A stretch of DNA of 64,000 nt from an uncultured Dehalococcoidales bacterium. GTDB lineage: Bacteria > Chloroflexota > Dehalococcoidia > GIF9 > AB-539-J10. Position 1 is the stretch's first letter; the number at the start of each line of letters is the position of its first letter. The position numbers were made by a program, and so were the translations under genes. Location: assembly GCA_964586515.1 (NCBI GenBank), contig CAZPGJ010000004.1:154539-218538 (forward strand), read 5' to 3'. Positions 2 to 35,280 of the stretch are shown here, one piece after another. The notes under the pieces are model-generated. The model was given only the letters and a program-made list of their open reading frames with translations, had not been told where the DNA came from and made no database searches.

Positions 2-2161
2 TTCCCCGGCGGTGGAGTAGCGCTTATTCGGCCATTCTTTGCCTGGCTTGTCTCTGGCACTATTCTGCTTGTCAGTCACGGGGCAACAACTCTATATCAC
101 ATGGAAGTGATAGCCGCTTACGTGCCTGCTATTCTGGGCGGTCTGACACTTATCCCCGTGTACTTTATTGGCAAGGAACTGTTTAACCGCTGGGTCGGCG
201 TAATTTCAGCTGCTCTAGTTGGCATCCTGCCCAGTGAATTTCTGCATCGTTCGCTGCTTGGCTTTACCGACCACCATGTAGCTGAGACTTTGTTTACCGC
301 CGTGAGCGCACTCTTTCTGATAATGGCCATTAAGCGAGCTCGAGAAAGGGAGATGTCCTTCGGGCACATTCTAAGTAGAGACTGGTCAACTATCAGGAGA
401 CCTCTCATCTATATGCTGCTCGCTGCCATCTTCTTGGGCTTTTATCTCCTTACCTGGCAAGGTGGGCTGTTGTTCGTCTTTATCATATTTGTTTACCTGG
501 TGATTCAGTTCGTAGGGGACCACATGACGCGTAAATCGAGCGACTATCTGTGCATTATAGGCACTCCTCTTTTCCTTATCGCCTTCCTCATGCTTCTTCC
601 GTTATTGGGCAGTGGCAGCTTTGAAGGGCTTTATCGTGTATCTATGCCAATTGCCATATTGGTGCCCGTACTCTTAAGCGTTATCTCGCGGCTCATGTCG
701 GGCAGGAATTTGAGGCCTGTTTACTACCCTTTGGCTCTACTGGCACTGCTTGGAATCGGGCTGGCTGCTTTGCATGCTATCAATCCCTCCCTATTTGGGT
801 ACATGTTCAGCCAATTCAGGGTCTTCAGTCCGGCTGGCGCGATGCTGACTGTCATGGAGGTGCATCCCCTGGACTTGAGCATAGCCTGGGCCAACTTTAA
901 CACCTCCTTCTTCATCTCATTTGTCTCCTTTGCCATGCTTATTTACATCGCTATTAAGGAAAGAAGTGCCGACAAGACCCTGTTCCTGGTATGGAGCATT
1001 ATGATGTTGATAGCAGTCTTTGGACAGCGCCGCTTCGGTTACTACTATGTCGTAAATGCTGCCTTGCTCACAGGGTATTTCTCCTGGAAAATGCTGGACT
1101 TGGCTGGATTGAGAAAATTGCTGGCTAAGCCTAAGGAACTTGTGGGAGCGGTTAAGAAATTCAAGAAAGGGAAAAAAGCCAAGGAGAAAGCAAGGAAAAA
1201 AACATTTATGCAGCCCAGAGGCGCCTGGGTAAATGTCATCATCGTGGGAATAATCCTCTTTTTCGTCGTCTTTTTCCCCAGTATTGGAGTGCGGGGGAAG
1301 ACGCCTACCAAAATTGCTGGAAGTGGTCCGGATTGGTTTTCCATTGGATACACACCGTATATTGCCGCGATGCCAAATCAGATTATGAACGAGGGGTGGT
1401 ATAGCGCATGTGTATGGCTAAGGGATAACAGTCCCGAACCTTTTAGTGACCCCAATTCCTATTATGAGATATACCCGCCGCAGAGTGAGTTTAAATATCC
1501 CGAGACCGCCTACGGCGTAATGTCCTGGTGGGACTATGGCTACTTTATCATGCAGATTGCCCATCGCATACCCAATGCCAATCCTGGCCAGAATGGGGCT
1601 AAGGAAGCCGGCGAGTTCTTTACCGCCCAGAATGATAGTTCAGCCCGGGAAATTGTGGAGCGGTACGACTTACGTACGAAATATGTGATGATTGACTATG
1701 CAATGGCAACGCCAGCGAAGTTCTATGCTATGGCAGAGTGGGCTGGCAGCAATGAAAGCAAGTTTTACGGAATTTATTACGTGCCTTCATCAAGTGGTGG
1801 TGGGCAATGGACATATTTATTCTATCCCACCTACTACGACTCTCTTGTGGTTAGGCTCTACAACTTTGACGGCCAAGCCGTGACTCCCACGAAACCGATA
1901 GTCATATCTTATGAAAATAAGGTGACCAGTACGGGACAGGAGTATATGGAAGTCACCGGTGCGCAATATTTCTCCAGCTATGAAGAGGCTCAAGCTTATG
2001 TCGCAAGCCAGACGTCTGGAAACTATAGAATAGTGGGCACCAGCCCCTTTACTAGCATTGTGCCTCTTGAAGCATTGAACAGCTATGAGCGCGTCTATTC
2101 ATCTGGCGACACTACAAATCAAACAACCGTGAAAGTTTTCGAGTACCTGGGCGGGTCCTGA
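2..2161 (+). CDS. aglB: Archaeal-type oligosaccharyltransferase (AglB/STT3 family), 5'-partial
   Basis: WWDYG motif (SWWDYGYF), GFTDHHVAE, TVME (TIXE-like), many TM segments and a soluble C-terminal domain. The frame of ORF 101..2161 is open back to base 2 (FPGGG..RPFFAWL), so the gene starts before the window. Confidence 0.9.
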   Translation, partial: FPGGGVALIRPFFAWLVSGTILLVSHGATTLYHMEVIAAYVPAILGGLTLIPVYFIGKELFNRWVGVISAALVGILPSEFLHRSLLGFTDHHVAETLFTAVSALFLIMAIKRAREREMSFGHILSRDWSTIRRPLIYMLLAAIFLGFYLLTWQGGLLFVFIIFVYLVIQFVGDHMTRKSSDYLCIIGTPLFLIAFLMLLPLLGSGSFEGLYRVSMPIAILVPVLLSVISRLMSGRNLRPVYYPLALLALLGIGLAALHAINPSLFGYMFSQFRVFSPAGAMLTVMEVHPLDLSIAWANFNTSFFISFVSFAMLIYIAIKERSADKTLFLVWSIMMLIAVFGQRRFGYYYVVNAALLTGYFSWKMLDLAGLRKLLAKPKELVGAVKKFKKGKKAKEKARKKTFMQPRGAWVNVIIVGIILFFVVFFPSIGVRGKTPTKIAGSGPDWFSIGYTPYIAAMPNQIMNEGWYSACVWLRDNSPEPFSDPNSYYEIYPPQSEFKYPETAYGVMSWWDYGYFIMQIAHRIPNANPGQNGAKEAGEFFTAQNDSSAREIVERYDLRTKYVMIDYAMATPAKFYAMAEWAGSNESKFYGIYYVPSSSGGGQWTYLFYPTYYDSLVVRLYNFDGQAVTPTKPIVISYENKVTSTGQEYMEVTGAQYFSSYEEAQAYVASQTSGNYRIVGTSPFTSIVPLEALNSYERVYSSGDTTNQTTVKVFEYLGGS

Positions 2162-2334
2162 GTAAAAATACAGCCATCCATTGCAAGTGGAGGGGGATTT
2201 GTGGGCTCTCATAGTTGGGGCACTGCTAGAACGTCAGTACCAGGTAATAATCCCTGATGGCCTCTTCACGGGAAGCTGGAAAACATAAGACTGCTTACTG
2301 AGCCATCTTGGTATTCCGACCTTTCCTCTTTTGT

Positions 2335-2525: not shown

Positions 2526-2614
2526 ATTTGCGTTGTCAAACGCTCTTCTGATAAAGTGCTTAAAAAGTAAGAAGGTGGTAGGTTAGCAATCTTGAGTAAT
2601 GGAGTTAAGCAGGG

Positions 2615-2623: not shown

Positions 2624-2654
2624 ATTTGCTACCCCCTAGGGAATGGCATTTGGA

Positions 2655-3722
2655 ATGAAAGCATTAATATTGGCTGGTGGTAAGGGAACTAGACTTAAGC
2701 CACTGACCAACACCTTGGCTAAACAGCTTATTCCGGTGGCTAATAAACCAATACTTTACTACGTTTTGGAGCAAATTGCTGAGGCCGAGATAAGGGATAT
2801 TGGTATTATTATTTCACCGGAAACAGGGCAGAGGATTAAGGAAGTGGTGGGAGATGGTTCAAAGTGGAATGCTCAAATTACCTACATTTTACAATCCGAA
2901 CCTTTGGGTCTTGCCCATGCTGTGAAGACAGCGCAAGACTTCCTTGGCGATTCTCCTTTCTTGATGTTTCTTGGCGATAATCTTATTCAGGGCGGCGTCA
3001 AGAGCTTTGTTAAAGAGTTTACTACAAAGAAGGCTGATGCACTTGTTCTGCTTAAAGAAGTTGCCGACCCACGCCTATTCGGCGTTGCTGAACTAAACGA
3101 AAAAGGCGAGATAACCAGGATTGTGGAAAAGCCACGGGAACCGAAAACTAATCTGGCGGTGCCCGGCGTTTACCTCTTCACCAGGGACGTACATCAGGCG
3201 ATAGACAGGATAAAACCCTCATGGCGAGGAGAACTTGAAATAACCGATACCATTCAACAACTCATTGATTCCGGCAAAAAAGTGTGCAGTCACATCCTCA
3301 CCGGCTGGTGGCTGGATACAGGGAAGAAAGATGACCTCCTGGAAGCTAACCGTATTGTCCTTGATGAATTTATGAAACGCGATTTAAGAGGTGAGATTGA
3401 TGCCGCCAGCCAGGTGGCAGGCAGAGTCGAGGTCGGAGAGGGAACAAGCATAGAACACAGTACCATCAGGGGGCCGGTATCTATTGGTGAGAATTGCCAT
3501 ATCAAGGACTCCTATATTGGTCCTTTTACCAGCATTGCTGCGGGAACGACTATTGAACGGTCCGGCATAGAGCACTCGGTTGTCTTGGAAAACTGCTCTA
3601 TTCGCAATATCGAGCGGTTGAGTGACTGTGTCATCGGTCGGTGTGCAGTCGTGACCAGGCGCGGAGACGGCTTCAAGGCAACCACGCTCTTTATCGGAGA
3701 TGATGCCAAAGTAGAACTGTGA
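2655..3722 (+). CDS. rmlA: Glucose-1-phosphate thymidylyltransferase, long form with C-terminal beta-helix
   Basis: [40 protein letters not shown]; alternative ATG at 2643. Confidence 0.92.
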
Positions 3723-4187: not shown

Positions 4188-4757
4188 ATGCCATTTGCTT
4201 TCAATAGGTTAGAGATTCCGGGGGTAGTCTTGATAAAACCAGAGGTTTTTGTGGATGGGAGGGGTTTCTTTACGGAAACATACAAGATGACGAATTTTGT
4301 TACTGCTGGCATAAAGGTAAATTTCGTCCAGGAGAATCACTCCCGTTCTGGTAAAGGGGTCCTGAGGGGATTGCATTATCAAAACCCACCCTTTGCACAG
4401 GGAAAGTTGGTGAGGGTGATAAGGGGCGAGATATTTGATGTCGCCGTTGACATTAGAAAGGGCTCGCCTACCTGGGGTAAATGGGTAGGGGTAATCTTAT
4501 CGGAAGAGAATAAAAATATTCTCTATGTTCCGGCAGGCCTTGCTCATGGGTTCTGTGTCCTTTCAGAAATTGCCGAGGTCATATATAAAACCACCAATGT
4601 CTACTCCGCTGAATCTGAAGCTGGTATTATCTGGAATGATGAGGACTTGGATATCGAGTGGCCTGTTAAGGAGCCGATTCTATCTGAAAAAGACAAGAAA
4701 TGGCCTGCGCTAAAGAATGCGGATATCAAATTTTACTATGCAGAGGAGGCAAAATGA
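4188..4757 (+). CDS. rmlC: dTDP-4-dehydrorhamnose 3,5-epimerase
   Basis: DGRGFF, QENHSRS..GVLRGLHYQ, QGKLVRVIRGEIFDVAVDIR. Confidence 0.95.
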   Translation: MPFAFNRLEIPGVVLIKPEVFVDGRGFFTETYKMTNFVTAGIKVNFVQENHSRSGKGVLRGLHYQNPPFAQGKLVRVIRGEIFDVAVDIRKGSPTWGKWVGVILSEENKNILYVPAGLAHGFCVLSEIAEVIYKTTNVYSAESEAGIIWNDEDLDIEWPVKEPILSEKDKKWPALKNADIKFYYAEEAK

Positions 4758-5758
4758 AGCTACTTGTCACCGGCGGCGCCGGCTTTATCGGCAGTAATTT
4801 CATTCGTCATATGTGGCAGGCGCACCCGGATTGGGAGATAACCAATCTGGACAAGCTCACCTATGCCGGCAACCTGGAAAACTTAAAAGACATACAAGAC
4901 CAGTCCGGCTACCACTTTGTCAAAGGAGACATAGCTGATAGGAAGCTGGTAGATAAGCTGCTGAGCCAGGGGCCCGATGTCATTGTGAACTTTGCTGCTG
5001 AGAGCCACGTTGACCGCAGCATCCTGGACGCCTCGCCATTCATCGAGACTAATGTTAAAGGGACTCAGGTGCTCCTCGAAGGGGCAAAAAAGCACGGGAT
5101 TCAAAGATTTATCCAAGTGTCCACCGATGAAGTCTATGGCTCTATTAATAGCGGCCGCTTTACTGAAGAATCAACTTTATCTCCCAACAGCCCGTATTCA
5201 GCCAGCAAAGCCGCTGCTGACCTTTTATGTCGCGCCTACTTCAAGACCCATCATCTGACGACAATTATCACCCGCTGCACCAACAACTTCGGACCGTACC
5301 AGTTTCCTGAGAAATTAATTCCCTTGGCTGTCACCAATGCCCTGGAAGATAAACCAATCCCCGTCTATGGCGATGGCCTCAACATCAGGGACTGGATCTT
5401 TGTAGTTGACCACTGCCGGGCTCTGGATGCCGTCATTCAGAAAGGCCAGCCCGGAGAGATATATAATATCGGCGGCGGCAATGAGAAGACCAACCTGGAA
5501 ATTATCCGCAAGCTGCTGGAGCTGCTGGGCAAACCACAGAGCCTGATGCAATTCGTTACCGACCGTCCTGCCCACGACCGCCGCTACGCTCTGGATTGCG
5601 CCAAAATAGCCACAGAACTGGGCTGGAAGTCAGATTATTCCTTTGAAAAAGCTTTGAGCGCTACTGTTGACTGGTATCTAAAGAACGAGTCCTGGTGGCG
5701 GTCAATCAAAAGCGGCGAGTATTCCGAATACTACAAGAAAATGTACCTCAAAAGGTGA
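4754..5758 (+). CDS. rmlB: dTDP-glucose 4,6-dehydratase
   Basis: MKLLVTGGAGFIGSNF, DKLTYAGN, AAESHVDRSI, YSASK; start set at ATG 4754 after GGAGG, overlapping the rmlC stop. Confidence 0.95.
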   Translation: MKLLVTGGAGFIGSNFIRHMWQAHPDWEITNLDKLTYAGNLENLKDIQDQSGYHFVKGDIADRKLVDKLLSQGPDVIVNFAAESHVDRSILDASPFIETNVKGTQVLLEGAKKHGIQRFIQVSTDEVYGSINSGRFTEESTLSPNSPYSASKAAADLLCRAYFKTHHLTTIITRCTNNFGPYQFPEKLIPLAVTNALEDKPIPVYGDGLNIRDWIFVVDHCRALDAVIQKGQPGEIYNIGGGNEKTNLEIIRKLLELLGKPQSLMQFVTDRPAHDRRYALDCAKIATELGWKSDYSFEKALSATVDWYLKNESWWRSIKSGEYSEYYKKMYLKR

Positions 5759-6624
5759 AAGTAGCGGTCACAGGCGCTAACGGGCAACTGGGCACTGATT
5801 TGTGCCGAACCCTGCATAACTTCGATGTCGTTCCCTTTACGCATGCTGATATCGAAATTGCCGATATGGCTTCTGTCAGGGAAGCCATGCTGAAACACAA
5901 GCCGGCTATTATTATAAATACCGCCGCTTATGTTCGAGTTGATGACTGCGAAGACGAAAAAGATAAAGCTTTCCAGGTGAATGCTCTGGGGGCCCGCAAT
6001 GTCGCTGTGGTTGCCCAAGAACTCGGAGCCCGGCTGGTCCACATCAGCACCGACTATATCTTCGGCGGCGAGGCTAAGCCGCGGACTACCCCCTATACCG
6101 AATTCGATACACCTGTTCCCCTGAGCGTTTATGGAAAATCCAAGCTGGCTGGGGAAACCCTTGTCCGCCATCTGTGCCATAGACACTTCATCGCCAGGGC
6201 TTCGGGACTTTTCGGCGTGGCCGGCTCCAGCGGCAAAGGCGGCAACTTCATTGAGGCCATGCTCAGGCTGGCCAGAGAGCGCGATGAACTCAAGGTGGTC
6301 AATGACCAGGTCTTTTCCCCCACCTACACCAGTGACTTAGCCCAAAAAATAGGCCAGCTAATGACCACCGACTATTACGGCATATTCCATATCACCAACA
6401 GAGGCACCTGCTCCTGGTATGAGTTCACCACAGAGATATTTAGGCTGGCTGGCATAAAGACCCCGGTCGCCCCCATAACTTCAGGCCAGTACCCCCAGAA
6501 AGCCCGGAGACCCCGCTATTCGGTGCTGGATAATTACCACCTGCGTCTCCTGGGCATGGACGACATGAGGCCCTGGCAAGAAGCGCTAAAAGATTACCTG
6601 ATAGCCAGAGGTCACATCGCCTGA
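5755..6624 (+). CDS. rmlD: dTDP-4-dehydrorhamnose reductase
   Basis: GANGQLG, HISTDYIFGG, YGKSKLAGE, ARRPRYSVL; GTG 5755 overlaps the rmlB stop. Confidence 0.93.
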   Translation: MKVAVTGANGQLGTDLCRTLHNFDVVPFTHADIEIADMASVREAMLKHKPAIIINTAAYVRVDDCEDEKDKAFQVNALGARNVAVVAQELGARLVHISTDYIFGGEAKPRTTPYTEFDTPVPLSVYGKSKLAGETLVRHLCHRHFIARASGLFGVAGSSGKGGNFIEAMLRLARERDELKVVNDQVFSPTYTSDLAQKIGQLMTTDYYGIFHITNRGTCSWYEFTTEIFRLAGIKTPVAPITSGQYPQKARRPRYSVLDNYHLRLLGMDDMRPWQEALKDYLIARGHIA

Positions 6625-8761: not shown

Positions 8762-9739
8762 GTGATTGTAGTTCAAACTCCTTTAAGGGTAAGTTTTGTT
8801 GGAGGGGGCACTGATTTTGATGACTTCTATTTATCTCATGGTGGGGCTGTCATTAGTACTGCCATTGATAAATATGTCTTTGTCATTGTAAAGGAGAGAT
8901 TTGATGATCTAATTTGCCTGAACTACACGAAAAGAGAGCGAGTAGAAAGGGTAGATGACCTCGACCATGAGCTCGTCAGAGAAGCTATGAGAATAACGGG
9001 AGTAAGCAAAGGGATAGAGATTACAACCCTTGCTGATGTACCTGCAGAAGGAACTGGCCTTGGTTCATCGAGTAGTGTTACTGTAGGGTTGCTTCAAGCT
9101 CTCTATGCTTACAGGGGCGAACTCAGGACAGCCGAGACTTTAGCTCAGGAAGCATGCCGCATAGAGATAGACATGCTGAAGCACCCCATAGGGAGACAAG
9201 ATCAATACATCGCAGCATACGGCAATCTTCGCTTCATCACCTTCAGCGATGCTGGCGTTGAAGTTGATAAAGTTGAGCTTTCTCCCGAAGAGAAGAGAAG
9301 ACTAAATGATAATCTCCTTTGCTTCTATACAGGCATGACTAGAAAAGCAGGCGAAATTTTAAAGGAGCAGAAAGCAAACATAAACGACCGTCTTAACGTG
9401 TTGGGTGAAATGAAAAAACTTGCCTTTCGGGCGAGAGATGCTATCATGCAAGGTGCTTTTGATGAGTTGGGAGAGATTTTGCACTCAAGTTGGGAATTGA
9501 AAAAGACCCTTGCCAGCAAGATAACCAATCCCCAGATAGACGAAAGGTATGAGGCTGCTCGGAAAGCGGGAGCCATCGGCGGCAAGATTAGCGGAGCTGG
9601 AGGGGGTGGTTTTTTGCTCCTATATTGTCCGAAGGAAAAACAAGATACAGTGAGAAAAATCCTCAAACTTCGAGAGCTTCCTTTCCGCTTTGAGGCAGAT
9701 GGAAGCAAAGTAATTTTTAACTATAGGAGAGAGAGTTGA
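8762..9739 (+). CDS. hddA: D-glycero-alpha-D-manno-heptose-7-phosphate kinase (GHMP kinase)
   Basis: TPLRVSFVGGGTD, GTGLGSSSS, IGRQDQY, GGKISGAGGGGF; next to gmhA. Confidence 0.85.
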   Translation: MIVVQTPLRVSFVGGGTDFDDFYLSHGGAVISTAIDKYVFVIVKERFDDLICLNYTKRERVERVDDLDHELVREAMRITGVSKGIEITTLADVPAEGTGLGSSSSVTVGLLQALYAYRGELRTAETLAQEACRIEIDMLKHPIGRQDQYIAAYGNLRFITFSDAGVEVDKVELSPEEKRRLNDNLLCFYTGMTRKAGEILKEQKANINDRLNVLGEMKKLAFRARDAIMQGAFDELGEILHSSWELKKTLASKITNPQIDERYEAARKAGAIGGKISGAGGGGFLLLYCPKEKQDTVRKILKLRELPFRFEADGSKVIFNYRRES

Positions 9740-10299
9740 AGGTCTTGGATGCTATAGCTAAATACATATCTGGTGTGAGTGCCACATTGGAGAAGCTTCC
9801 AGTAGAGAAGATTGCCGAGGTTGTTAATTCGTTAGAAAAAGCACGACTCGAAGGCAATAAAGTTTTCATTTTTGGCAATGGAGGTTCAGCAGCTACCGCC
9901 TCACATTTCGCCAGTGACCTTTCCAAGGGAGCTATCCGCGAGGGAAAGCCACGGATAAAAGCCTTTGCTTTGACTGACAATACCCCCGTGCTTACAGCTT
10001 GGGCGAATGACACCTCTTATGAAAATATTTTCGCTGAACAGTTGGAGAACTGTGTTGATTCTGGAGACATTGTGATTGGCATCAGTGGAAGTGGCAATTC
10101 GCTAAATGTGCTGAAAGCTATGAATGTGGCAAGGGCCAAGGGGGCTAGCACCATCGGCTTTATCGGTTTTGACGGTGGAAAACTTAAGAGCCTTGTGGAT
10201 ATTGCCATTATAGTTCCCAGCCATAATATGGAGCAGGTCGAGGATGTACACCTGCTTCTTGAGCATGTTATCACCACCTGTTTAAGAGAGGCGCTTTAG
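9736..10299 (+). CDS. gmhA: Sedoheptulose-7-phosphate isomerase
   Basis: FGNGGSAATASHF, TAWAND, ISGSGNS, EQVEDVHL. Confidence 0.88.
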   Translation: MKVLDAIAKYISGVSATLEKLPVEKIAEVVNSLEKARLEGNKVFIFGNGGSAATASHFASDLSKGAIREGKPRIKAFALTDNTPVLTAWANDTSYENIFAEQLENCVDSGDIVIGISGSGNSLNVLKAMNVARAKGASTIGFIGFDGGKLKSLVDIAIIVPSHNMEQVEDVHLLLEHVITTCLREAL

Positions 10300-10300
10300 A

Positions 10301-11281
10301 ATGAATGTTCTGGTTACCGGGGGGGCTGGGTACGTCGGAAGCATCGTCACCGAGCACTTACTAAAACAAAAGCATAAAGTAATTGTCCTTGATAACCTGC
10401 GACAGGGACATAAGGAAGCTGTCTTATCACCCGCTGAATTTGTATTGGGCGATATATGCAGCGTTGAGACACTTGAGGAAATAATTCGCCGTTTTAAGAT
10501 TAATGCTGTAATGCACATGGCAGCCGAGACAGTGGTGGAGTTCTCCATAACCGACCCCTGGAGGTATTTCCAGAATAATGTAGTCGGGAGCTTAAACCTG
10601 CTGGAAGCGATGCGAAAGCACCAAGTCCACAAATTGGTCTTTTCGTCAAGCGCCGCAGTTTATGGAGAACCTGAGTCCACACCCATAGGGGAAGAGCATC
10701 CTAAAGCACCAATAAATGCCTACGGCGAATCTAAGCTTATGTTTGAACGTATTCTTAGCTGGTATGGCAGAGCCTATGGGATTAAGCATATATCCTTGAG
10801 GTATTTTTGTGCTGCTGGGGCGACAAAGCTTCTGGGTGAAGACCATCGTCCCGAGACACACCTCATCCCAAACGTCCTTAAAGCAGCCTTGAACATAAAC
10901 AATCCGGTTTCTGTATTTGGCACAGACTATCCAACGAAGGATGGGAGCTGCATCCGGGATTTCGTTCATGTGGTGGATATTGCCCAGGCCCATCTCTTAG
11001 CTCTAGAAAAGATAGGTGGCCTGAGCGGTAACATTTATAACTTAGGAAATGGCAAAGGGTATTCGGTGCTCGAGGTCATCAAAACTGCGGAGGAAGTTGC
11101 AGGCGTGGAAATCCCGGTCAAATTTTGCCCTCGCCGTCTTGGGGATCCCACAACCCTTGTGGCCAGTGCAGAACGAGCCATGCGAGGATTGGGCTGGAAA
11201 CCTCAATTTTCTAAACTCGAAGATATCGTCGAGAGCGCCTGGCGCTGGCTTAAGGACCATCCTGATGGATATAAGCAATAG
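10301..11281 (+). CDS. galE: UDP-glucose 4-epimerase
   Basis: GGAGYVGS, FSSSAAVYG, YGESK, LRYF, RDFVHVVDIA. Confidence 0.88.
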   Translation: MNVLVTGGAGYVGSIVTEHLLKQKHKVIVLDNLRQGHKEAVLSPAEFVLGDICSVETLEEIIRRFKINAVMHMAAETVVEFSITDPWRYFQNNVVGSLNLLEAMRKHQVHKLVFSSSAAVYGEPESTPIGEEHPKAPINAYGESKLMFERILSWYGRAYGIKHISLRYFCAAGATKLLGEDHRPETHLIPNVLKAALNINNPVSVFGTDYPTKDGSCIRDFVHVVDIAQAHLLALEKIGGLSGNIYNLGNGKGYSVLEVIKTAEEVAGVEIPVKFCPRRLGDPTTLVASAERAMRGLGWKPQFSKLEDIVESAWRWLKDHPDGYKQ

Positions 11282-11297
11282 CTGCATCGTCAAGGCA

Positions 11298-12041
11298 ATG
11301 ATACTTGCCGCAGGAGAAGGCACCAGGCTAAGACCACTCACCTTGGAAACTCCGAAGGTGCTTTTACCTGTAGCGGGTGTGCCACTGATTTATTATACCC
11401 TTGCCTGGCTCAGAAGCCATGGCATAGGAGAAGTATGCGTCAATCTCCACCACCTGGGTAGCAGGATAAAGGAGTCGCTTGGCGATGGCTCTCGGTTTGG
11501 AGTTAAAATCCGTTACTCTGATGAGGATGCACTTCTGGGGACTGCTGGCGGGGTGAAAAATGTTGAGGATTTTTTTGATGGCGCGTTTGTTGTTGTATAT
11601 GGGGATGTCCTTACCAATTTTGACCTCTCGAGCATGATGAAGCTCCACTGGGATAAGCAGGCTTTAGCAACGTTAGCAGTGACCGAGACGTTTAATCCTT
11701 CGGAAGTTGGTGTTGTTCAGATGGAAAAAGGCGGCAGGATTCTCTCTTTTCTTGAGAAGCCCCGGAAGGGAACTGAACCGGGGAATGTGGCGAGTGGTGG
11801 GATATACGTGTTAGAAAGGGATGTTCTTGACTTTATACCGAGCCAGGGCTTTTGCGATTTCGCCTACGACGTCTTCCCTAAACTCATAAGAGCAAATCTT
11901 CCTGTTTACGGGTATGTACTTAGACACGAAGATTACCTCATTGACATTGGCACCATTGACAAATACCTCAAAGCGAATGAGGATGTAAAATCAAGGAAGG
12001 TGAAAATAACGTATGAAGAACAGAGCAGTGTTCCTGGATAG
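11298..12041 (+). CDS. hddC: NDP-sugar pyrophosphorylase, probably heptose-1-phosphate guanylyltransferase
   Basis: MILAAGEGTRLRPLT..PK, LLGTAGG, YGDVL, IDIGT; substrate inferred from the hddA/gmhA/gmhB context; start trimmed from 11049. Confidence 0.75.
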   Translation: MILAAGEGTRLRPLTLETPKVLLPVAGVPLIYYTLAWLRSHGIGEVCVNLHHLGSRIKESLGDGSRFGVKIRYSDEDALLGTAGGVKNVEDFFDGAFVVVYGDVLTNFDLSSMMKLHWDKQALATLAVTETFNPSEVGVVQMEKGGRILSFLEKPRKGTEPGNVASGGIYVLERDVLDFIPSQGFCDFAYDVFPKLIRANLPVYGYVLRHEDYLIDIGTIDKYLKANEDVKSRKVKITYEEQSSVPG

Positions 12042-17163: not shown

Positions 17164-17314
17164 GATATGCCTTCACTTTCCTGAAGAAGCTGCTCCAGCC
17201 TTCATTTAGGATGACCCTGATAGCTGTCGGCCTGAGCTCGAAGTAGTAACGTCCTCTGACGCTCGGGCGTAAGAACTTTTCAACTGTCCTTTGATACCTG
17301 TTCACAAGACGCAT
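17123..17314 (-). pseudogene. Detached NEGW C-terminal module, probably the frameshifted tail of the GT4 gene
   Basis: MRLVNRYQRTVEKFLRPSVRGRYYFEL..IRVILNEGWSSFF, homologous to the C-terminus of 22719..23816. Confidence 0.6.
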
Positions 17315-19139: not shown

Positions 19140-19330
19140 GAGATACACATTCTCTCTCACAATTACGGTACGGCATATTTCCTTTAGCCGAGCAATATAG
19201 TTTTGACCGACCTTTGAAGTGGTAACAACGATGGAACTAGATACCTCCTCCAAGCTGCGCAGAAAATACCAGACGTATTCGTCAACCAAATTGTGTCTGT
19301 CAAAATGGCGGAGATACAAACACGTTTCAT
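19140..19330 (-). pseudogene. Frameshifted, truncated RgpF-type rhamnan synthesis protein N-terminus
   Basis: ATG at 19330 (ATGA overlap with upstream stop) gives MKRVCISA; a one-base shift continues HFDRHNLVDEYVWYFLRSL..VIVRENV, typical of the RgpF N-terminus; homology then ends. Confidence 0.7.
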
Positions 19331-23816: not shown

Positions 23817-23821
23817 TGCGG

Positions 23822-24559
23822 CTATTTTCCTTGCAGCATTGCCAGATAGTGATTTATTACACTCTCAGTATCACCCATGGTGACAATCTGGCCTTCGTTC
23901 AATAGTATCGACCGGTCGCACAGCTTCTTCACGGACTCCAGGGCATGTGAGACAAAGACTATGGTCCTGCCGTCGGTTTTGAACTGGTTCATCTTGTCCG
24001 CGCACTTTTTCTGGAAGGCTTCATCGCCCACGGCAAAGACTTCGTCTATGAGGAGGGTGTCAGGGGTGGCGTTGATGGCGGTGGAGAAAGCCAGCCGCAG
24101 GAACATGCCGGAGGAAAAGTTCTTCAGCTTCATATTTTCGAATTTCTTGAGCTCGGCGAAGTCGAAGATGTTGTCATAAGCCTTGTCCACCTGTTTTCGC
24201 CCCAGGCCGAGGATGGAGGAGTAGATATAAACGTTTTCGCTGGCAGTTAACTCGGGTTGAAAGCCAACGCCCAATTCCAGGAAGGAAGCAACCTTGCCGT
24301 TCATGCTGACCGAGCCACTGTTAGGGTACAGGACCTTTGCCAGTATTTTGAGCAGTGTGCTCTTTCCCGAGCCGTTCCTGCCGATTATGCCCAGCGCTTC
24401 GCCCTTGTTGACCTCGAAGCTGACGTTCTTTAGCGCCCAGAACTCTTCGTAGCTGAACTGCCTCTTGATAAGGCCGACTACGTTCTGGAAGACCGTGGTC
24501 TTCTTTTCGTGGGGGATGCGAAATCTCTTGGAGACGTTGTCTACGACTATGGCGCTCAT
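23822..24559 (-). CDS. wzt: Polysaccharide ABC transporter ATPase, without C-terminal carbohydrate-binding domain
   Basis: FWALKNVSF, GRNGSGKST, FSSGMFLRLAF, IDEVFAVGD; 245 aa. Confidence 0.92.
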   Translation of the reverse strand: MSAIVVDNVSKRFRIPHEKKTTVFQNVVGLIKRQFSYEEFWALKNVSFEVNKGEALGIIGRNGSGKSTLLKILAKVLYPNSGSVSMNGKVASFLELGVGFQPELTASENVYIYSSILGLGRKQVDKAYDNIFDFAELKKFENMKLKNFSSGMFLRLAFSTAINATPDTLLIDEVFAVGDEAFQKKCADKMNQFKTDGRTIVFVSHALESVKKLCDRSILLNEGQIVTMGDTESVINHYLAMLQGK

Positions 24560-24763: not shown

Positions 24764-25519
24764 TCATGCCAGCTCCTCGGCAAACCGGCGGTGTAATCTG
24801 CCGAAAACGAGGCTGCCCACGAGAAAGGCGGCGGCGGCGAAACCAACGACGACCACAACGCTATACGGTGAGGGCAAAGTCCCGGCGACCATTACATCGC
24901 GGTACATAGTTATGAACTGAGTTACCGGATTAAGCGTGTAATAGGGTAATAGAGAAGCAGGAACTATGCTAATGGGATAGAAGATGGGTGAGCAGAAGAA
25001 GAGGACCTGGAGCAGGACTTGCCATATCTGGTTCAGGTCACGGAAGTAGACATAAAGAGAGGACAAGAGCAGCCCGGCGCCGTAAATGAACCAGAAGAAG
25101 GGTATGTAAATCAGGAGGAACAGCGGCGTCGTGACGGGCAAATGTCCGAGCACGACGACTATTATGAGCAGCAAGACCACAAACGTGAGCAGGGAATTTA
25201 TCAGACCGGACAGGACATCGCTCAGCACCAGTATCTGACGCGGTATGTAGACCCTGGTTACCAGGCTGGCCTTGCCGACGATGGCCTGGAGGCCGGAGTT
25301 GGTGCCGGTGGCGAAGAAATTCCAGGCCATTATGCCCACCAGCAGGTTTATGGCGAAATTCTGCTCTTGGCCGTACAGGTGTCTGAAGACGAAGTACAGG
25401 ACGCCTGCCATCAGAAGCGGGCTGAGCAGAGACCAGAAAAAACCAAGGGCGGTATTCTGGTAGCGGTTCTTGAGGTCAACGGTGGTCAGGTTCCAGATTA
25501 GCTCTCGGTATTGCAACAT
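24764..25519 (-). CDS. wzm: Polysaccharide ABC transporter permease
   Basis: DLKNRYQNTALGFFWSLLSPL, YFRDL, PIFYP, LNPV. Confidence 0.92.
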   Translation of the reverse strand: MLQYRELIWNLTTVDLKNRYQNTALGFFWSLLSPLLMAGVLYFVFRHLYGQEQNFAINLLVGIMAWNFFATGTNSGLQAIVGKASLVTRVYIPRQILVLSDVLSGLINSLLTFVVLLLIIVVVLGHLPVTTPLFLLIYIPFFWFIYGAGLLLSSLYVYFRDLNQIWQVLLQVLFFCSPIFYPISIVPASLLPYYTLNPVTQFITMYRDVMVAGTLPSPYSVVVVVGFAAAAFLVGSLVFGRLHRRFAEELA

Positions 25520-25831: not shown

Positions 25832-26407
25832 TCAATCACAGGGAGGAGTCATTCCTGAGCCCGGCTTCTTCGAGCTTCCATCGCCCCCTGCTAGACCTGC
25901 AAAGTCTTGTGGGCGACCTCTGAATCCGTTGTCTTCTTTCGAATCTTCTTGTTTAAAACGCAGTGACCAACAAAATCCCAAATTGTCAAAAGCCGAGCCC
26001 GCGCTATCTAGAACTTCCGGAGTATCGTAGAAATAGATTTTAGGTACACAACATCTGATAGAAGCGTCGGTTTCTATGGTATTCACCAGCTTAGAGATGC
26101 GTGTTGATTCCACAACTGTATCACTATTAAGCAGGAAGATGAAGTCTCCGTCTGCCAGTTGCACGCCTCTATTATTCCCTTCTGCGAAGCCGTAATTCTT
26201 ATCCAGTGCAAGTATATGGACCCAAGGGAAGGTGTTCTCTACATATTCTACAGACCCGTCTTGGGAAGCATTATCAACAAATACTATTTCGAATCTGTCT
26301 CGGGGATAATCTGAGTTTTCTAAGGAAGCAAAACATTCTCCCAAGAAACGCTTGCCATTGTAATTGACCACGATGGTGCTTACAAAGGGAAGGTTATTGT
26401 TATTCAC
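25832..26407 (-). pseudogene. C-terminally truncated GT2 glycosyltransferase
   Basis: IVVNYNG, VDNASQDGS, NYGFAEGNN, LLNSDT; similarity to neighbour 26459..27430 stops after GFCWSL and the frame ends in repeat-like DNA. Confidence 0.75.
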
Positions 26408-26458: not shown

Positions 26459-27430
26459 TTACCTCGCAATGTGCAGTAGTTGAGCCCACTCCAGATTCCA
26501 ATTCAGCCTTCGAAGCAAGGCGAAGTCGGAAATCTTTCTTAATAGCTGGTACTGGTCTCGCCGCTGCTTTATATTGCTCCACTCTCGCCACAGGGAAGCC
26601 AGGGCATCAAATTTGGCCCTGATATATGACCGGCCCTTGGCCAGACTATAGATTATTATCATGAGCTCTATTACCAGGAGTATGGGCAGGCAAGCTAGTA
26701 AGGTTAGAGGTTTTAACGTGCTCAATAGCAGAATGTGCCGATTTTTCTCGAGGCGAAATAGTTTCTCAGGGTCCATCTTCAGGCGGTATTTGTGAAAGAC
26801 TGTTGATTCGGGCAGGCAGTATATCTCATGACCCATCAAACGCAGGAGCCAGGAGACGATGACATCGTCGTTCCCCATAAAGCACCACCCGGGTGCGCCA
26901 CCCATCTGTTCGAGCAACTGGCGCCTAATTAGATAGGAGCAACCGCTGACCCCAGGCACGTTCTCAGGGATGACTGAATTATCATCCTCCCTGCCTAGAC
27001 TGCGGCAAAAGCCCAGGCCAGTGATATGAATATTCAACCCCAGGGCGTTGATTTTAGTCCGGTCATTAAAAAGCAAAACCTTAGGCGTTACGGCTCCTGC
27101 CTGCGGGTTCTTATCTAAAAAAGCTACCATAGCACTTAGCCAGTTGGGAGCAACTTCGGTGTCTATGTTGAGTGGCGCAATATAGTCACCAGTAGCATAA
27201 GCTAAGCCAGCATTAATACCACCAGCATAACCTAAATTTTTATCGTTAACAACAAATGTCAAGTCAGGGAACTTGCCTCGAGCGTACTCTAAGCTGCCAT
27301 CGCTGGAATTGTTGTCAACGAAAATAACCTCGAAATTCTTATAGCTTTGTTTCAAGACTGACGAAATGCAAGCATCAAGATGCGACATCCCATTGTAATT
27401 TACTAAAATCACCGACGCTTTCTTTGCCAT
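26459..27430 (-). CDS. GT2 glycosyltransferase (rhamnosyltransferase-like)
   Basis: VILVNYNG, VDNNSSDGS, NLGYAGGIN, LNIDTE. Confidence 0.88.
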   Translation of the reverse strand: MAKKASVILVNYNGMSHLDACISSVLKQSYKNFEVIFVDNNSSDGSLEYARGKFPDLTFVVNDKNLGYAGGINAGLAYATGDYIAPLNIDTEVAPNWLSAMVAFLDKNPQAGAVTPKVLLFNDRTKINALGLNIHITGLGFCRSLGREDDNSVIPENVPGVSGCSYLIRRQLLEQMGGAPGWCFMGNDDVIVSWLLRLMGHEIYCLPESTVFHKYRLKMDPEKLFRLEKNRHILLLSTLKPLTLLACLPILLVIELMIIIYSLAKGRSYIRAKFDALASLWREWSNIKQRRDQYQLLRKISDFALLRRLNWNLEWAQLLHIAR

Positions 27431-28598: not shown

Positions 28599-29501
28599 TT
28601 ATTTTCGCCTGCTTAAGGTGTTCAGGATTATGCCGGTGAAGATGCTTAATATGCCGGCCATAATGAATAGAGTGGTCAGTACGGTGCTGCCTATTGCTAG
28701 CTCGCCTGTTGCAGAGGCTATATGAACCACTCTGAAGCCGATGATGAGGCCAATCACCAGCAAGATGCCGCCCGCCAGTCCGAAGAAGAACAGGGGTCTC
28801 CTCTGTGAAATCATGACTACTATTCGGCTGATAATTTCTATGCCATGCCTTATCGGGTTGAGGGTTGAGCCATCTATGGTATATATGTTTGAGATGGGCA
28901 CCTCGGTTATCCTAAGGTTCTTCTCCACAGCGCGAACTATTGTTTCTTCTGATACGGCCATCCCCTTTTCCTTCAGCTCCAGTTCGGATATTGCCTTCCC
29001 AGAGAAGGCTCGAAAGCCACATTCGGAATCGGAGATATTGGTTTTTGAAGCGAGACGGGCTGAGTGTAAAAGGACTTTTTGTCCGAGGCGGCGGTAATGG
29101 GGAGTCTTATCTTTCTGTGCCTCTCTAGAGCCGATGGCGAGGTCAAAACCCTCCAAAATGGGTTTGATGAGAGCGGGAATTTCATTAGGGTCGTGCTGGG
29201 CATCGGCATCCAAGAGAACGAAGACATCTGGATTTCTCTTCTTTGCCTCTGCCAGTATGCTCTGGATAGCAGCCCCGTAGCCCTTGTTCTCGTGGTGTCG
29301 GATTACGGTGGCGCCAGCCAGCTCGGCAACCCTGGCTGTGTTATCGCTGCTTCCATCATCAGCGACAAGGACTTCATCCACGTATTGCCTTGCCTGGAGG
29401 ACTACGCTTCCTATATACCTTGCTTCATTGTATGCAGGTATGCCGGCAAGGACACTAACCTTATGTTCTTTGTTTTGAGTGTGAAGTCCAGAGCCTTTCA
29501 T
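28599..29501 (-). CDS. GT2 polyprenol-phosphate glycosyltransferase-like protein with C-terminal TM helices
   Basis: IPAYNEA, DDGSSD, NKGYGAA, LDADAQH, DSECGFRA. Confidence 0.85.
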   Translation of the reverse strand: MKGSGLHTQNKEHKVSVLAGIPAYNEARYIGSVVLQARQYVDEVLVADDGSSDNTARVAELAGATVIRHHENKGYGAAIQSILAEAKKRNPDVFVLLDADAQHDPNEIPALIKPILEGFDLAIGSREAQKDKTPHYRRLGQKVLLHSARLASKTNISDSECGFRAFSGKAISELELKEKGMAVSEETIVRAVEKNLRITEVPISNIYTIDGSTLNPIRHGIEIISRIVVMISQRRPLFFFGLAGGILLVIGLIIGFRVVHIASATGELAIGSTVLTTLFIMAGILSIFTGIILNTLSRRK

Positions 29502-29718: not shown

Positions 29719-30651
29719 ATGAAGGTTTTAGTGACTGGCGGAGCTGGCTTTATTGGCTCGCACTTGGTTGACGCGTTAATACAACAAGGGCATCGAGTGG
29801 TTGTGGTAGATAACCTATCAACGGGCCAGCTTGAGAATATTAACTCAGCAGCAGTGTTTTATAAGGTGGATATTTGCAGCCCTGAACTGGAAAGGATATT
29901 CGAGGAGGAAAGACCAGAGCTAGTTAATCATCAAGCGGCTCAAACAGTGATCCAGAAATCGATGGAGGATCCTGCGTTTGATGCGAAGCAAAACATCTTG
30001 GGTGGCTTGAACCTCATTTTGCAATGTGTGCGGTTTGGGGTCAAGAAGATTGTGTATGCATCCTCTGTGGGAGTATATGGCGGACCAAGATATCGCCCGG
30101 TAGATGAAAGTCATCCAGTAAATCCAATGTCCTATTATGGGATCTCAAAACACACGATAGAGCATTATCTTCACGTTTTCTGTCTTGAGTACGCACTGCG
30201 CTATGTAGTGCTCAGGTACTCCAATGTCTATGGTCCAAGGCAGAATTCTAAAGGTGAAGCTGGAGTGGTAGCTATCTTCACTTGTCAAATGTTGCAGGGA
30301 GAGCGTCCTACTATATTTGGCAAGGGGGATAAAACTCGCGACTATGTCTATGTATCTGATGTAGTGACAGCCAATCTTCTGGCCATGGAAAAAGGTGAGA
30401 ATATTATCCATAATATTGGCACTGGGGTGGAGACATCGGATCAGGAAATATTCAATCTTTTGGCTGGGTTGGTAGGGTATCATGGTAGTCCTCATTATGC
30501 ACCGGTGCGGAAGGGGGAGATCTATAGAATTTACCTAGATTATTCGAAAGCCCGAAAGGAAATGGGTTGGCAGCCGCGATTCTCGCTCAGAGACGGGTTA
30601 GCGGAAACAGTTGGGTATTATCGAAGCGTGTTAGCGAAACAACGCATATAG
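29719..30651 (+). CDS. NAD-dependent epimerase/dehydratase (GalE-like)
   Basis: GGAGFIGSH, YGISK, LRYSNVYGPRQ, RDYVYVSDV. Confidence 0.88.
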   Translation: MKVLVTGGAGFIGSHLVDALIQQGHRVVVVDNLSTGQLENINSAAVFYKVDICSPELERIFEEERPELVNHQAAQTVIQKSMEDPAFDAKQNILGGLNLILQCVRFGVKKIVYASSVGVYGGPRYRPVDESHPVNPMSYYGISKHTIEHYLHVFCLEYALRYVVLRYSNVYGPRQNSKGEAGVVAIFTCQMLQGERPTIFGKGDKTRDYVYVSDVVTANLLAMEKGENIIHNIGTGVETSDQEIFNLLAGLVGYHGSPHYAPVRKGEIYRIYLDYSKARKEMGWQPRFSLRDGLAETVGYYRSVLAKQRI

Positions 30652-33922: not shown

Positions 33923-35280
33923 CTGTTAGCCTCCACCAGACTTTGAACAAGTTTTTTGCCTTTGTTTATAAGCTCATCAGTCTGTGTCTGCGATGTTGAC
34001 TCGGAGATTACTCGGAGGACAGGTTCGGTGCCACTAGCTCTGATAAGTATCCAGGAGTCAGGAAAATCCAGCCTCAGGCCATCAAGAGTATTTATCTCAT
34101 CATAAGCAAATAGGTGAGCCTTTTCTTTTACCTGAGCCATGACTGACTCTTTAAGTTCATCAGGACAAAAAACCTTTGCTTTTCCGAAGAATAGTCTGGG
34201 CATACCTTGGAAGAATTGTCTGATTTCGCCAGCATTGCTTAGCTGACTTAACAAGAAAAGTGAGGCGAAAATGCTATCGGGATAATAGCCCGCTTCGGGG
34301 ATGATGTAGACACCTACCTGTTCCACTCCTAAGGCAGCATCGAGCTCCTGGGCTAGATGAGCCACAGCGACATCGCCAACCCTGCCTTTAATCACTTCTA
34401 CTCCCAGGTCTTTCACTGCCAGGTCAAGAAGTGTTCCAGTTTCTACTGTGGTGGCAATCTTTTTCCTTCCCGTTTTCTTGACGACCAATCTCGAGATGAA
34501 GGCGATGGGCTCGTTGAAACCGAGGAAACCTTCTTTATCGCAGAAAACAACGCGGTCAGCATCGCCATCAAAGCAAATAGCTAAGTCAGCATTATGTTGT
34601 CTCAGGAAATTAACTGTGTCCTGAAGAGTATCCTCCTTGGGATCGGGGCTTCTCCCCAGGAAAAGGCCATCTGGCTCATCATTTACAGGTAGTACATCAA
34701 GGCCCATCTGGACAAAGATGGCGCTGGCAAAGTTGGAGGCAGCGCCATTGCCAGGGTCAACGACTATTTTTAGGTGAGGATTAAATCCTGGCCGAGAAAG
34801 CTTGCCTTTAATAAAGGAAAGGTATCTTTGTTTCATATCTTGTGCTTGCTCCAAAGTTCCTTTCTTCCCCTGGCGGAATTTTTGTTCAAAATAGACTTTC
34901 TCTATCTCCGCTTCTTGAGCCTGGCTATATCCCAGCGAATTCTCGGTGAAGAGCTTGATTCCATTGAACTCAGGTGGATTGTGGGAGGCTGTGACCATAA
35001 TTCCAGCGGCAAAGCCCGATTCCCGGGTGAGTAATGCCAGCGCTGGAGTAGGCAGAATGCCTAAATCAACTACGTTTATGCCACAGGAAAGCAAGCCTGC
35101 ACAAACTGCTTCCTTAATTACATCCCTGCTTATCCTGGTGTCGGTAGCGATACAAACTGTGGAGGCCGGAGGCAGGGTAGTGCCTATGGCTAAGGCAACC
35201 CGGCGGTAGAAATCGGGCGATAAATCTTGGTTGATTACGCCCCGGATACCACTGGTCCCAAATAGTCTCCTTGTGTGCAT
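33919..35280 (-). CDS. glmM: Phosphoglucosamine/phosphomannomutase
   Basis: LFGTSGIRG, MVTASHNPP, FDGDADR, RASGTEP; start trimmed to ATG 35280. Confidence 0.8.
   Translation of the reverse strand: MHTRRLFGTSGIRGVINQDLSPDFYRRVALAIGTTLPPASTVCIATDTRISRDVIKEAVCAGLLSCGINVVDLGILPTPALALLTRESGFAAGIMVTASHNPPEFNGIKLFTENSLGYSQAQEAEIEKVYFEQKFRQGKKGTLEQAQDMKQRYLSFIKGKLSRPGFNPHLKIVVDPGNGAASNFASAIFVQMGLDVLPVNDEPDGLFLGRSPDPKEDTLQDTVNFLRQHNADLAICFDGDADRVVFCDKEGFLGFNEPIAFISRLVVKKTGRKKIATTVETGTLLDLAVKDLGVEVIKGRVGDVAVAHLAQELDAALGVEQVGVYIIPEAGYYPDSIFASLFLLSQLSNAGEIRQFFQGMPRLFFGKAKVFCPDELKESVMAQVKEKAHLFAYDEINTLDGLRLDFPDSWILIRASGTEPVLRVISESTSQTQTDELINKGKKLVQSLVEANR

Follow-up and report, generated by a model that had tools for sequence, protein, structure and literature searches.

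An archaeal-type oligosaccharyltransferase and a Wzm/Wzt exporter in one glycan island of the Dehalococcoidia: a possible N-glycosylation pathway

Introduction

The window, a 64,000-nucleotide stretch of contig CAZPGJ010000004.1 from an uncultured Dehalococcoidales bacterium (assembly GCA_964586515.1), encompasses a glycan-biosynthesis island of about 35 kb that begins with the gene for AglB, an archaeal-type oligosaccharyltransferase (OST) of the STT3 family, and that also encodes the ATP-binding cassette (ABC) exporter Wzm/Wzt. All positions given below are those of the window. The island is read here, tentatively and with a likelihood only a little short of probable, as a single archaeal-style pathway of lipid-linked N-glycosylation operating in the Dehalococcoidia, in which Wzm/Wzt exports the glycan in place of a Wzx-type flippase. 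In its fuller form, which is quite possible though not yet probable, the proposal is that a Dehalococcoidia lineage took over an archaeal AglB toolkit (AglB, an AglJ-like initiator, GlmU and GlmM), and that Wzm/Wzt feeds AglB with long, monophosphate-linked, O-methylated polymers of rhamnose and heptose. The island thus suggests, short of proof, a new kind of N-glycosylation in which surface proteins receive long methylated polymers.

Open reading frame (ORF) calling together with Pfam and NCBIfam scans places the island, without interruption, at 2-35415. An earlier note on the same DNA had described the island as spanning 2-35280; its end needs this correction, while the parts that it named (the AglB motifs, the rhamnose, heptose and GlcNAc genes, a GT2 glycosyltransferase, wzm/wzt and the glycosyltransferase fusions) are all found where it had placed them, with strong statistics.

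AglB is an archaeal-type oligosaccharyltransferase

The gene and its motifs are found at the following positions.

2..2161, + strand: AglB, archaeal-type STT3 oligosaccharyltransferase (residues 59-777 of the 777-residue protein P0001)
260-277: GFTDHH, with DHH at 269-277
848-859: TVME, at the position of the TIXE motif
1526-1540: WWDYG
1694-1720: DK-type motif

The window edge removes the first 58 residues of AglB, and with them the first catalytic aspartate, D32, but short public contigs contain the full protein at 100% identity. AglB matches the Pfam family STT3 (E 3e-16) as well as an AglB_core-like domain (E 7.5e-21), and it scores 595.4 bits on NCBIfam TIGR04154 (archaeo_STT3), for which the cut-off is 450. 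The best match in the PDB is AglB-L of Archaeoglobus fulgidus (AfAglB-L, E 1e-67). In this alignment D32 (in LETDSYWY), D148-H149-H150 and T341..E344 (in LTVMEV) fall opposite the GNDPWYY, NDHH and LTIAEV of AfAglB-L; WWDYG corresponds to residues 567-571, and the DK-type residues D623..M626..K631 align with DIEMETGK. D32, DHH, T341/E344, WWDYG and D623/K631 are invariant in 26 homologues of 68-86% identity. Eleven transmembrane (TM) segments are predicted in the part of the protein within the window and 12-13 in full-length relatives, which, with the Pfam matches, agrees with the layout of the class, an N-terminal GT-C domain of approximately 13 segments followed by a soluble C-terminal domain.

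PglB chains, the bacterial branch of the family, are absent from the matches both at E<=0.01 with the single sequence and at E<=10 with a profile of the AglB family, a profile that finds AfAglB-L at 1.7e-82 and human STT3A at 1.9e-9. Membership of PglB is rejected on this ground and on the motif, which is of the DK type and not of the MI type. Taken together, the motifs, the match to AfAglB-L and the lack of any match to PglB identify the enzyme as an AglB, and the earlier view of it as an archaeal-type STT3 protein is upheld. The enzyme is intact and looks active, and it is predicted to transfer a lipid-linked glycan to asparagine.

A scan of one genome per GTDB species yields 568 relatives of AglB, and about 53 of the best 80 of these belong to metagenome-assembled genomes (MAGs) of Dehalococcoidia/Chloroflexota, at 32-71% identity. 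The best identity among the species representatives is 71%, in a partial match, and 67% over the full length, so that the source species has no representative in this collection. The nearest archaeal AglBs, those of Methanocellales, Methanosarcinales and ANME-1/Methanophagales, stand at 36-39%. In a neighbour-joining tree, which carries no support values, nearly all bacterial AglBs form one large clade that is sister to these archaeal (Methanomicrobia-type) proteins, and a small second bacterial group (L056, L058, L067) branches apart. The pattern is consistent with an old inter-domain transfer followed by vertical diversification. One MAG harbors two copies of AglB (L035, L036). Automated annotation already labels these proteins 'oligosaccharyl transferase, archaeosortase A system-associated'.

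The exporter and the two conserved ends of the island

The island is composed of two convergent sets of genes. The + strand carries AglB, rmlA, a gene for a 23S rRNA intervening-sequence (IVS) protein, rmlC/B/D, a patch of toxin-antitoxin genes and a heptose operon. The - strand carries GlmM/U/S, an AglJ-like GT2, a toxin-antitoxin pair, two further GT2 genes, Wzm, Wzt and a series of methyltransferase (MT) and glycosyltransferase (GT) genes that includes two fusions, and it is broken by one + strand gene, for an epimerase, at 29719-30651. The rhamnose and heptose precursor genes follow directly after AglB and in the same direction, and the only candidate GTs to use these precursors are those of the convergent wzm/wzt set. 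Promoter and terminator scans find nothing in the gap between aglB and rmlA or at the convergent junction at 12.6-13.0 kb. The exporter genes are as follows.

23822..24559, - strand: Wzt, ABC ATPase of 245 amino acids, nucleotide-binding domain only
24764..25519, - strand: Wzm, ABC-2 permease

An ABC-2 permease and an ATPase that are adjacent in a glycan cluster devoid of Wzx and Wzy indicate an ABC-dependent pathway. When all ORFs in 1-36 kb are scanned for hydropathy, just two proteins emerge as polytopic, AglB (11 or more TM segments) and Wzm (5); two others, the AglJ-like GT2 and a flanking small-multidrug-export protein at 35489-35935, have two TM segments each. Domain scans and hydropathy together detect no Wzx, Wzy, O-ligase or second GT-C enzyme in 1-36 kb, which bears out, for the window, the earlier note's remark on the lack of a recognisable Wzy or O-ligase. 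The same region contains no domain of a Wzy_C-type O-oligosaccharyltransferase (WsaB) or of a WbaP-like WsaP.

Wzm is conserved as AglB is, with more than 120 homologue clusters at 73-85% identity. One homologue (P0176, 76% identical) is labelled 'Promethearchaeota archaeon' at NCBI; its closest relatives are all from Dehalococcoidia, and it probably derives from a mis-binned contig. In four loci of relatives there are proteins of 571-606 amino acids with 8-10 predicted TM segments and no Pfam match (L115 11558-13273, L119 11816-13543, L143 4249-6069, L159 7301-9121). These could be unrecognised GT-C enzymes, polymerases or ligases, and the window encodes none of them.

The earlier note had asked for synteny across relatives, and it is conserved at the scale of the island. 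In the subclade to which the AglB of the window belongs (56-75% identity), the upstream flank consists of conserved leuB, leuA, an alpha/beta hydrolase gene and a divergent rhomboid protease gene. What follows AglB is variable and nearly always glycan-related: rmlABCD (L011, L089, L091, L175, L176), a heptose operon at 79-92% identity (L008), a set of CMP-sugar and aldolase genes (L004, L010, L172, L173), or UDP-glucose dehydrogenase with GTs (L037, L174). The Wzm block at the other end is similarly fixed, with Ham1, the small-multidrug-export protein, GlmM, GlmU, GlmS, the AglJ-like GT2, either a 323-residue GT2 or Alg14/Alg13, Wzm and Wzt; the variable GT and MT genes come after Wzt.

With flanks of 10 kb, Wzm/Wzt is seen near AglB in none of the 53 bacterial genome loci, two ABC ATPases of 25% identity excepted, because the islands are 20-38 kb long. 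AglB and Wzm matches on shared contigs were paired and both ends were read. Two further contigs carry AglB, a variable island and Wzt-Wzm in this order: Ga0307427_1000493 (24,745 bp) has AglB at 1354-3696(+) and Wzm at about 23360-24109(-), and Ga0315533_1000235 (50,664 bp) has AglB at 1146-3500(+) and Wzm at about 41129-41878(-). The gap between AglB and Wzm is 22.6 kb in the window, 19.7 kb in the first of these contigs and 37.6 kb in the second; the orientation is the same in all three, and the recurring order is rhomboid, AglB(+), variable island, Wzt-Wzm(-), GT2s and GlmSUM. A fourth contig, PWUU01000096.1 (GCA_003562475.1), has an AglB from another subclade (41% identity) and, 8 kb away, a Wzm that is 76% identical, with GT2s and rmlABCD between them. 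Protein accession numbers gave no link that would place AglB and Wzm in one NCBI assembly.

Two islands are read all the way from AglB to Wzm, and both encode no exporter besides Wzm/Wzt and no GT-C enzyme besides AglB. On Ga0307427_1000493, where the stretch is fully covered (L173 and L135), AglB and Wzm are the only polytopic proteins. Conserved machinery is found at both ends of the island, and the genes between them are variable and sugar-specific, a layout shared with O-antigen and slg (S-layer glycan) loci.

The divergent rhomboid gene lies approximately 150-400 bp upstream of AglB in more than 10 loci of the subclade (for example L173 608-1243, L089 9274-9849 and L174 9113-9706). A rhomboid mutant of Haloferax reportedly has an altered S-layer N-glycan, and it is conceivable that the rhomboid is functionally tied to glycoprotein processing.

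An AglJ-like glycosyltransferase links the two ends

Haloferax volcanii uses AglJ to attach the first sugar to dolichol phosphate and AglB to pass the glycan to asparagine residues of the S-layer protein (PMC3871713). Two GT2 genes of the Wzm block are candidates for the corresponding early steps in the island.

28599..29501, - strand: AglJ/Dpm1/ArnC-like polyprenol-monophosphate GT2, 300 amino acids, two C-terminal TM helices; candidate initiator
26459..27430, - strand: GT2, 323 amino acids, hydrophobic C-terminal segment; candidate second-sugar transferase

Homologues of the AglJ-like GT2 directly adjoin AglB in four bacterial loci (L027, L028, L031, L034) and in five archaeal ones (L047, L048, L050, L051, L063), among them loci of Methanocellales and Methanosarcinales, and they adjoin Wzm/Wzt in at least 16 metagenome loci. 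In L028 the row of genes is AglB, a homologue of the 300-residue GT2 and a homologue of the 323-residue GT2; the latter is kept beside Wzm in relatives at 83-89% identity. By gene neighbourhood, the AglJ-like GT2 thus links the AglB end of the island to the Wzm end.

In L083, L084, L115 and L119 the AglJ-like GT2 is directly followed by Alg14/Alg13-like genes, which fits a primer that is being extended rather than a side-chain donor. These genes, which are of the GT28 type and either split or fused (L083 3275-4213, L084 1087-2048, L115 6136-7052), hint at a GlcNAc-GlcNAc-type core like the chitobiose core of eukaryotes and archaea.

Weighing the alternatives

Several observations weigh against a single pathway. 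The coupling of the two ends is a matter of inference, and an island that simply brought together all the surface-glycan genes of a small genome would look alike. Wzx-type flippases are encoded at 14 bacterial AglB loci, 13 from more distant Dehalococcoidia and one (L175) from the subclade of the window itself; in 10 bacterial loci the flippase gene is immediately downstream of AglB. A Wzx-fed AglB therefore seems to be the norm of the family, and the genome may encode a Wzx outside the window. In one close relative, L090, the genes after AglB are not glycan-related, the sole exception in the subclade. The window holds no phosphoglycosyl transferase of the WecA/WbaP type and no WaaL, and the 300-residue GT2 reaches 154.9 bits on its best NCBIfam match, AglJ (TIGR04182), against a cut-off of 325, so that its role as initiator is assigned by analogy only. 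Wzt lacks the C-terminal carbohydrate- or cap-binding domain that methyl-capped systems use, for which reason 'methyl-capped' is not an established description of the polymer, and methylation may run along the chain; some relatives have a Wzt of 514 amino acids.

Foremost among the alternatives is that two independent systems share the island. AglB would then act on a short oligosaccharide, for which both the assembly genes and a flippase of the Wzx/AglR type would be encoded outside the window, and the methylated rhamnose/heptose polymer exported by Wzm/Wzt would stay lipid-anchored or be attached elsewhere, in a layer resembling a capsule, a lipoglycan or a secondary wall polymer. Wzx is common beside AglB and is found neither in the window nor in any of about 85 Wzm-centred loci, so that this alternative remains a serious one, although it is somewhat less likely than the single pathway. 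It is favored further by the rarity of AglB within 10 kb of Wzm, which is seen in just one of those Wzm-centred loci (L085), by the persistence of AglB in L090 without adjacent glycan genes, and by the different housekeeping flanks on which the GlmSUM-GT2-Wzm-Wzt and leuA-rhomboid-AglB blocks each sit. Against it, the window and the AglB-Wzm stretch of Ga0307427_1000493 contain no flippase except Wzm/Wzt and no transferase or ligase except AglB, homologues of the AglJ-like GT2 adjoin both AglB and Wzm/Wzt, and AglB is co-directional upstream of precursor genes for whose products no users are visible except the GTs of the wzm/wzt set.

It is unlikely, though less so than a loss of AglB function, that AglB receives the ABC-exported glycan while the AglJ-like GT2, like GtrB, ArnC and GacI, makes a polyprenol-phosphate sugar that serves decoration outside the membrane. 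The chain would in this case be started on a diphosphate-linked carrier by a phosphoglycosyl transferase of the WecA/AglH or WbaP type encoded elsewhere, and initiating transferases are indeed often encoded outside O-antigen clusters. The GT2 matches PpgS as well as AglJ, and its best PDB matches are the dolichol phosphate mannose synthase (DPMS) of Pyrococcus (5mlz) and ArnC, with all the family scores under their cut-offs. Set against this are the absence from the island of any GT-C enzyme, AglB apart, that could use such a donor, the Alg14/Alg13-like second-sugar transferases that directly follow the GT2 in relatives, and the position of the GT2 directly beside the UDP-GlcNAc supply genes, which is conserved with Wzm/Wzt.

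That AglB has lost its N-glycosylation activity, or uses a non-protein acceptor, is highly improbable, since the catalytic and sequon-binding motifs are invariant across the 26 homologues and, among the best 80 loci, at least 53 from Dehalococcoidia/Chloroflexota have kept the family.

The interpretation put forward in the earlier note, in which an N-glycosylation enzyme is served by an ABC-exported polysaccharide pathway, consequently stands in part. It gains from the archaeal type of the STT3 protein, from the synteny of the island, from the presence of the AglJ-like GT2 at both ends and from the lack of any other exporter or GT-C enzyme, and it loses from the Wzx-type flippases at 14 other AglB loci and from L090. 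The description of the island as a hybrid of pathways from separate domains of life is overstated. The sugar-nucleotide and initiation genes are themselves archaeal-type, and the island rather resembles a pathway of archaeal style whose bacterial owner has acquired a Wzm/Wzt exporter. N-linked glycans made of repeating units are known in Halobacterium.

Sugar-precursor genes

The precursor genes supply rhamnose, heptose and GlcNAc donors.

2643..3722, + strand: RmlA, long form (glucose-1-phosphate thymidylyltransferase with an LbH domain); TIGR01208, 484 bits, cut-off 320
4188..6624, + strand: dTDP-L-rhamnose synthesis; RmlC 4188-4757, RmlB ORF 4700-5758, RmlD ORF 5695-6624
8762..12627, + strand: heptose-precursor operon of five genes, as follows
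8762-9739, + strand: HddA-like GHMP kinase
9736-10299, + strand: GmhA-type SIS isomerase
10301-11281, + strand: GalE-type 4-epimerase
about 11289-12041, + strand: HddC-like nucleotidyltransferase
12013-12627, + strand: GmhB phosphatase; 189 bits, cut-off 178
29719..30651, + strand: NAD-dependent sugar epimerase/dehydratase, 310 amino acids
30680-32455, - strand: GlmS, UDP-GlcNAc supply
32597-33922, - strand: GlmU, archaeal-type; TIGR03992, 282 bits, cut-off 292
33919-35415, - strand: GlmM, archaeal-type; TIGR03990, 423 bits, cut-off 439

The rmlA/C/B/D genes (2643-6624) are assigned with E values of 1e-66 to 1e-90. The archaeal-type matches of GlmU and GlmM are both slightly under the cut-offs of their families.

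Glycosyltransferases, methyltransferases and a shared basic module

The variable part of the - strand set encodes candidate enzymes for making and modifying the chain; a GT2 remnant from the other side of wzm is listed with them.

12962..13885, - strand: stand-alone methyltransferase, 307 amino acids
13882..17163, - strand: fusion of 1093 amino acids with a basic module of approximately 50 residues, GT4, GT2 (Glyco_tranf_2_4) and Methyltransf_24; polymerase-like
17280..18782, - strand: GT4 of 500 amino acids with an N-terminal module
19327..22716, - strand: fusion of 1129 amino acids with an N-terminal module, GT4, GT2 and Methyltransf_11; polymerase-like
22719..23816, - strand: protein of 365 amino acids with a class I MT, a long helix (about residues 238-304) and a C-terminal module
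25832..26407, - strand: truncated GT2 remnant, 191 amino acids (orthologues 345-365 amino acids)
16984-17104, 17177-17297, 18636-18756, 22570-22690 and 22761-22881, all - strand: copies of the module

The two GT4+GT2+MT fusions and the 500-residue GT4, which is a recent paralogue of the GT4 part of the 1093-residue protein, are the polymerase-like multi-domain GTs of the island, and their polymerase activity is predicted from architecture. The 365-residue MT resembles the chain terminator WbdD in architecture and lacks its kinase domain; membership of the WbdD family is unsupported, as the similarity (E 8e-5) is confined to the MT fold. An AlphaFold2 model of this protein, made without an alignment, has a mean pLDDT (predicted local distance difference test) of 41.8, and the long helix alone is usable. 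Orthologues of the 191-residue GT2 align only to its first approximately 136 residues, and the 313 nt before wzm show no continuation of it, whichever frame is read.

The basic module, with the consensus YQKV.EKLLRPGTRRRYYYELGL.AIRVIRNEGW.SFF, is encoded by a segment of approximately 120 nt and occurs in five copies. The three polymerase-like GTs carry it N-terminally and the MT-helix protein C-terminally. The fifth copy (17177-17297, within 17126-17335 (-)) spans the 3' end of the gene for the 500-residue GT in a different frame; the gene may consequently be frameshifted, whether genuinely or through an assembly error, and this GT may originally have had a C-terminal module, mirroring the junction between the MT (C-terminal) and the 1129-residue GT (N-terminal).

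A search with a profile of the module finds 157 representative clusters among 1.84 billion proteins, and a word-index homologue search with the 50-residue module gives one match. When 58 carriers of the module were scanned against Pfam, GT2, GT4, methyltransferase and pyruvyltransferase domains were the commonest families, and no Pfam family covers the module itself in the carriers of the window. In the loci studied it is always located in the variable region after Wzt, at the ends of proteins or between domains. With a net charge of +7 to +11, the module may serve to tether proteins peripherally to the membrane or to dock them.

The proposed pathway

Gene functions in the following scheme are assigned by homology, and we infer the order of the steps and their coupling. 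GlmS, GlmM and GlmU would provide UDP-GlcNAc, RmlABCD dTDP-L-rhamnose, and HddA/GmhA/HddC/GmhB an NDP-heptose. The AglJ-like GT2 (28599-29501) would load the first sugar, probably GlcNAc, onto polyprenol monophosphate, and the second sugar would be added by the 323-residue GT2, at whose position relatives have the Alg14/Alg13 pair. The three GT4-containing proteins may then extend a chain containing rhamnose and heptose on the membrane's cytoplasmic side. The MT domains of the fusions and the 307-residue MT are predicted to O-methylate this chain, with up to four MT activities in all, and the MT-plus-coiled-coil protein may cap or terminate it. The shared module probably keeps these soluble enzymes at the membrane. 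Once the lipid-linked glycan is finished, Wzm/Wzt would export it, and AglB would move it en bloc to the asparagine of N-X-S/T sequons in secreted or S-layer proteins.

Relation to known systems

Cultured Dehalococcoidia are reported to have no peptidoglycan and an S-layer-like envelope. The closest working model for the island, by analogy, is the S-layer glycan pathway of Geobacillus stearothermophilus. This organism makes a methyl-capped rhamnan, which is attached to the S-layer protein after its export by Wzm/Wzt, and the pathway uses rml genes and a trifunctional MT+GT enzyme, WsaE (PMC2943079). An example of an S-layer glycan with heptose comes from Bacillus thermoaerophilus (PMC2943079). 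The slg locus of strain NRS 2004/3a, together with those of related Bacillaceae, shares with the island rmlACBD, wzm/wzt, multi-domain MT+GT proteins (WsaE-like) and methylation. It differs in that transfer is O-linked, by the Wzy_C-type WsaB, and in that synthesis starts with a WbaP-type Gal-1-P transferase, WsaP; neither is encoded in the window, and the only candidate transferase in the island is an N-OST.

The euryarchaeal AglB pathway, represented by the agl cluster of Haloferax volcanii and the structures of AfAglB-L (3WAJ/5GMY), resembles the island in the type of AglB, with all motifs present, in the AglJ-like GT2, in the archaeal-type GlmU and GlmM and the long-form RmlA, and in having glycan genes around aglB. 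In contrast, the island lies in a bacterium, has a Wzm/Wzt ABC-2 exporter and no AglR/Agl15-type (Wzx-like) flippase, and encodes large, polymerase-like multi-domain GT fusions whereas the archaeal GTs add single sugars.

With the O8/O9a system of Escherichia coli (WbdA/WbdD/Wzm/Wzt) the island has in common an exporter of the ABC-2 type, polymerising GTs of several domains, an MT whose long helix resembles a coiled coil, and the absence of Wzy and Wzx. Unlike that system it has an MT without a kinase, a Wzt without a cap-binding domain, and no WecA or WaaL. The host of the island is moreover expected to lack lipopolysaccharide.

The PglB/PglK system of Campylobacter also combines a bacterial STT3-family OST with an ABC-type exporter of a lipid-linked glycan. 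PglB, however, belongs to a different branch of the STT3 family, with an MI-type motif, whereas the AglB of the island is of the DK type. PglK is an MsbA-like half-transporter and not a Wzm/Wzt protein, and its glycan is a heptasaccharide on undecaprenyl diphosphate, started by PglC. To our knowledge, natural STT3-family N-glycosylation in bacteria has been demonstrated experimentally only for PglB of Campylobacterota and some Desulfobacterota. In the searchable literature we found no paper on an oligosaccharyltransferase or STT3 protein of Dehalococcoidia, nor one that joins Wzm with AglB, other matches being incidental.

Archaeal-type AglB proteins form a large, conserved clade in the Dehalococcoidia, as the window documents, and the window also bears on the transfer of envelope machinery from archaea to bacteria. 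As a variation on known systems, the island represents an archaeal-type N-OST pathway in bacteria that is plausibly fed by an ABC-2 exporter, and not a categorically new mechanism. Were the coupling to Wzm/Wzt true, an OST would here be fed by a third, undescribed route, in addition to flipping of the Wzx and PglK types, and a bacterial surface protein would naturally bear an N-linked polysaccharide. The coupling would also explain a variable glycoprotein surface in these uncultured bacteria, with a hypervariable island between conserved ends like the loci of O-antigen serotypes, and would provide an N-OST that naturally handles donors of polysaccharide length, which is of interest for glycoconjugate engineering.

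The host and minor features of the island

The closest named homologues of both AglB and Wzm are from Dehalococcoidia MAGs. An archaeal host is ruled out by the bacterial housekeeping genes at 44-64 kb, which include ribD (fused)-ribE-ribBA-ribH, thrS, infC (IF3), rplT (L20), pheS and pheT, a bacterial-type proS, and an ispG-rseP-dxr-cdsA operon.

The toxin-antitoxin genes of the island encode an MNT-type nucleotidyltransferase (7153-7437), a DUF2281 antitoxin with MazF (7477-8012), a HicB-like antitoxin (8281-8496), and a ribbon-helix-helix (RHH) protein with MazF (27828-28424). The islands of relatives have similar genes (MazF, MNT/HepT, HicAB, ParE) at equivalent places (L085, L087, L175). 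The 23S rRNA IVS protein, a member of a four-helix-bundle family (PF05635), is encoded at 3795-4157(+), between rmlA and rmlC, and such genes appear again in relatives, sometimes twice, inside rml operons or beside glmS (L087 3010-3393; L175 15148-15534 and 16252-16617).

Beyond the island, the window encodes a class V (archaeal-type) fructose-1,6-bisphosphate aldolase/phosphatase at 37092-38201 and an RtcB-archease pair at 42095-43998, which are more genes that are better known from archaea and are found here in a bacterium.

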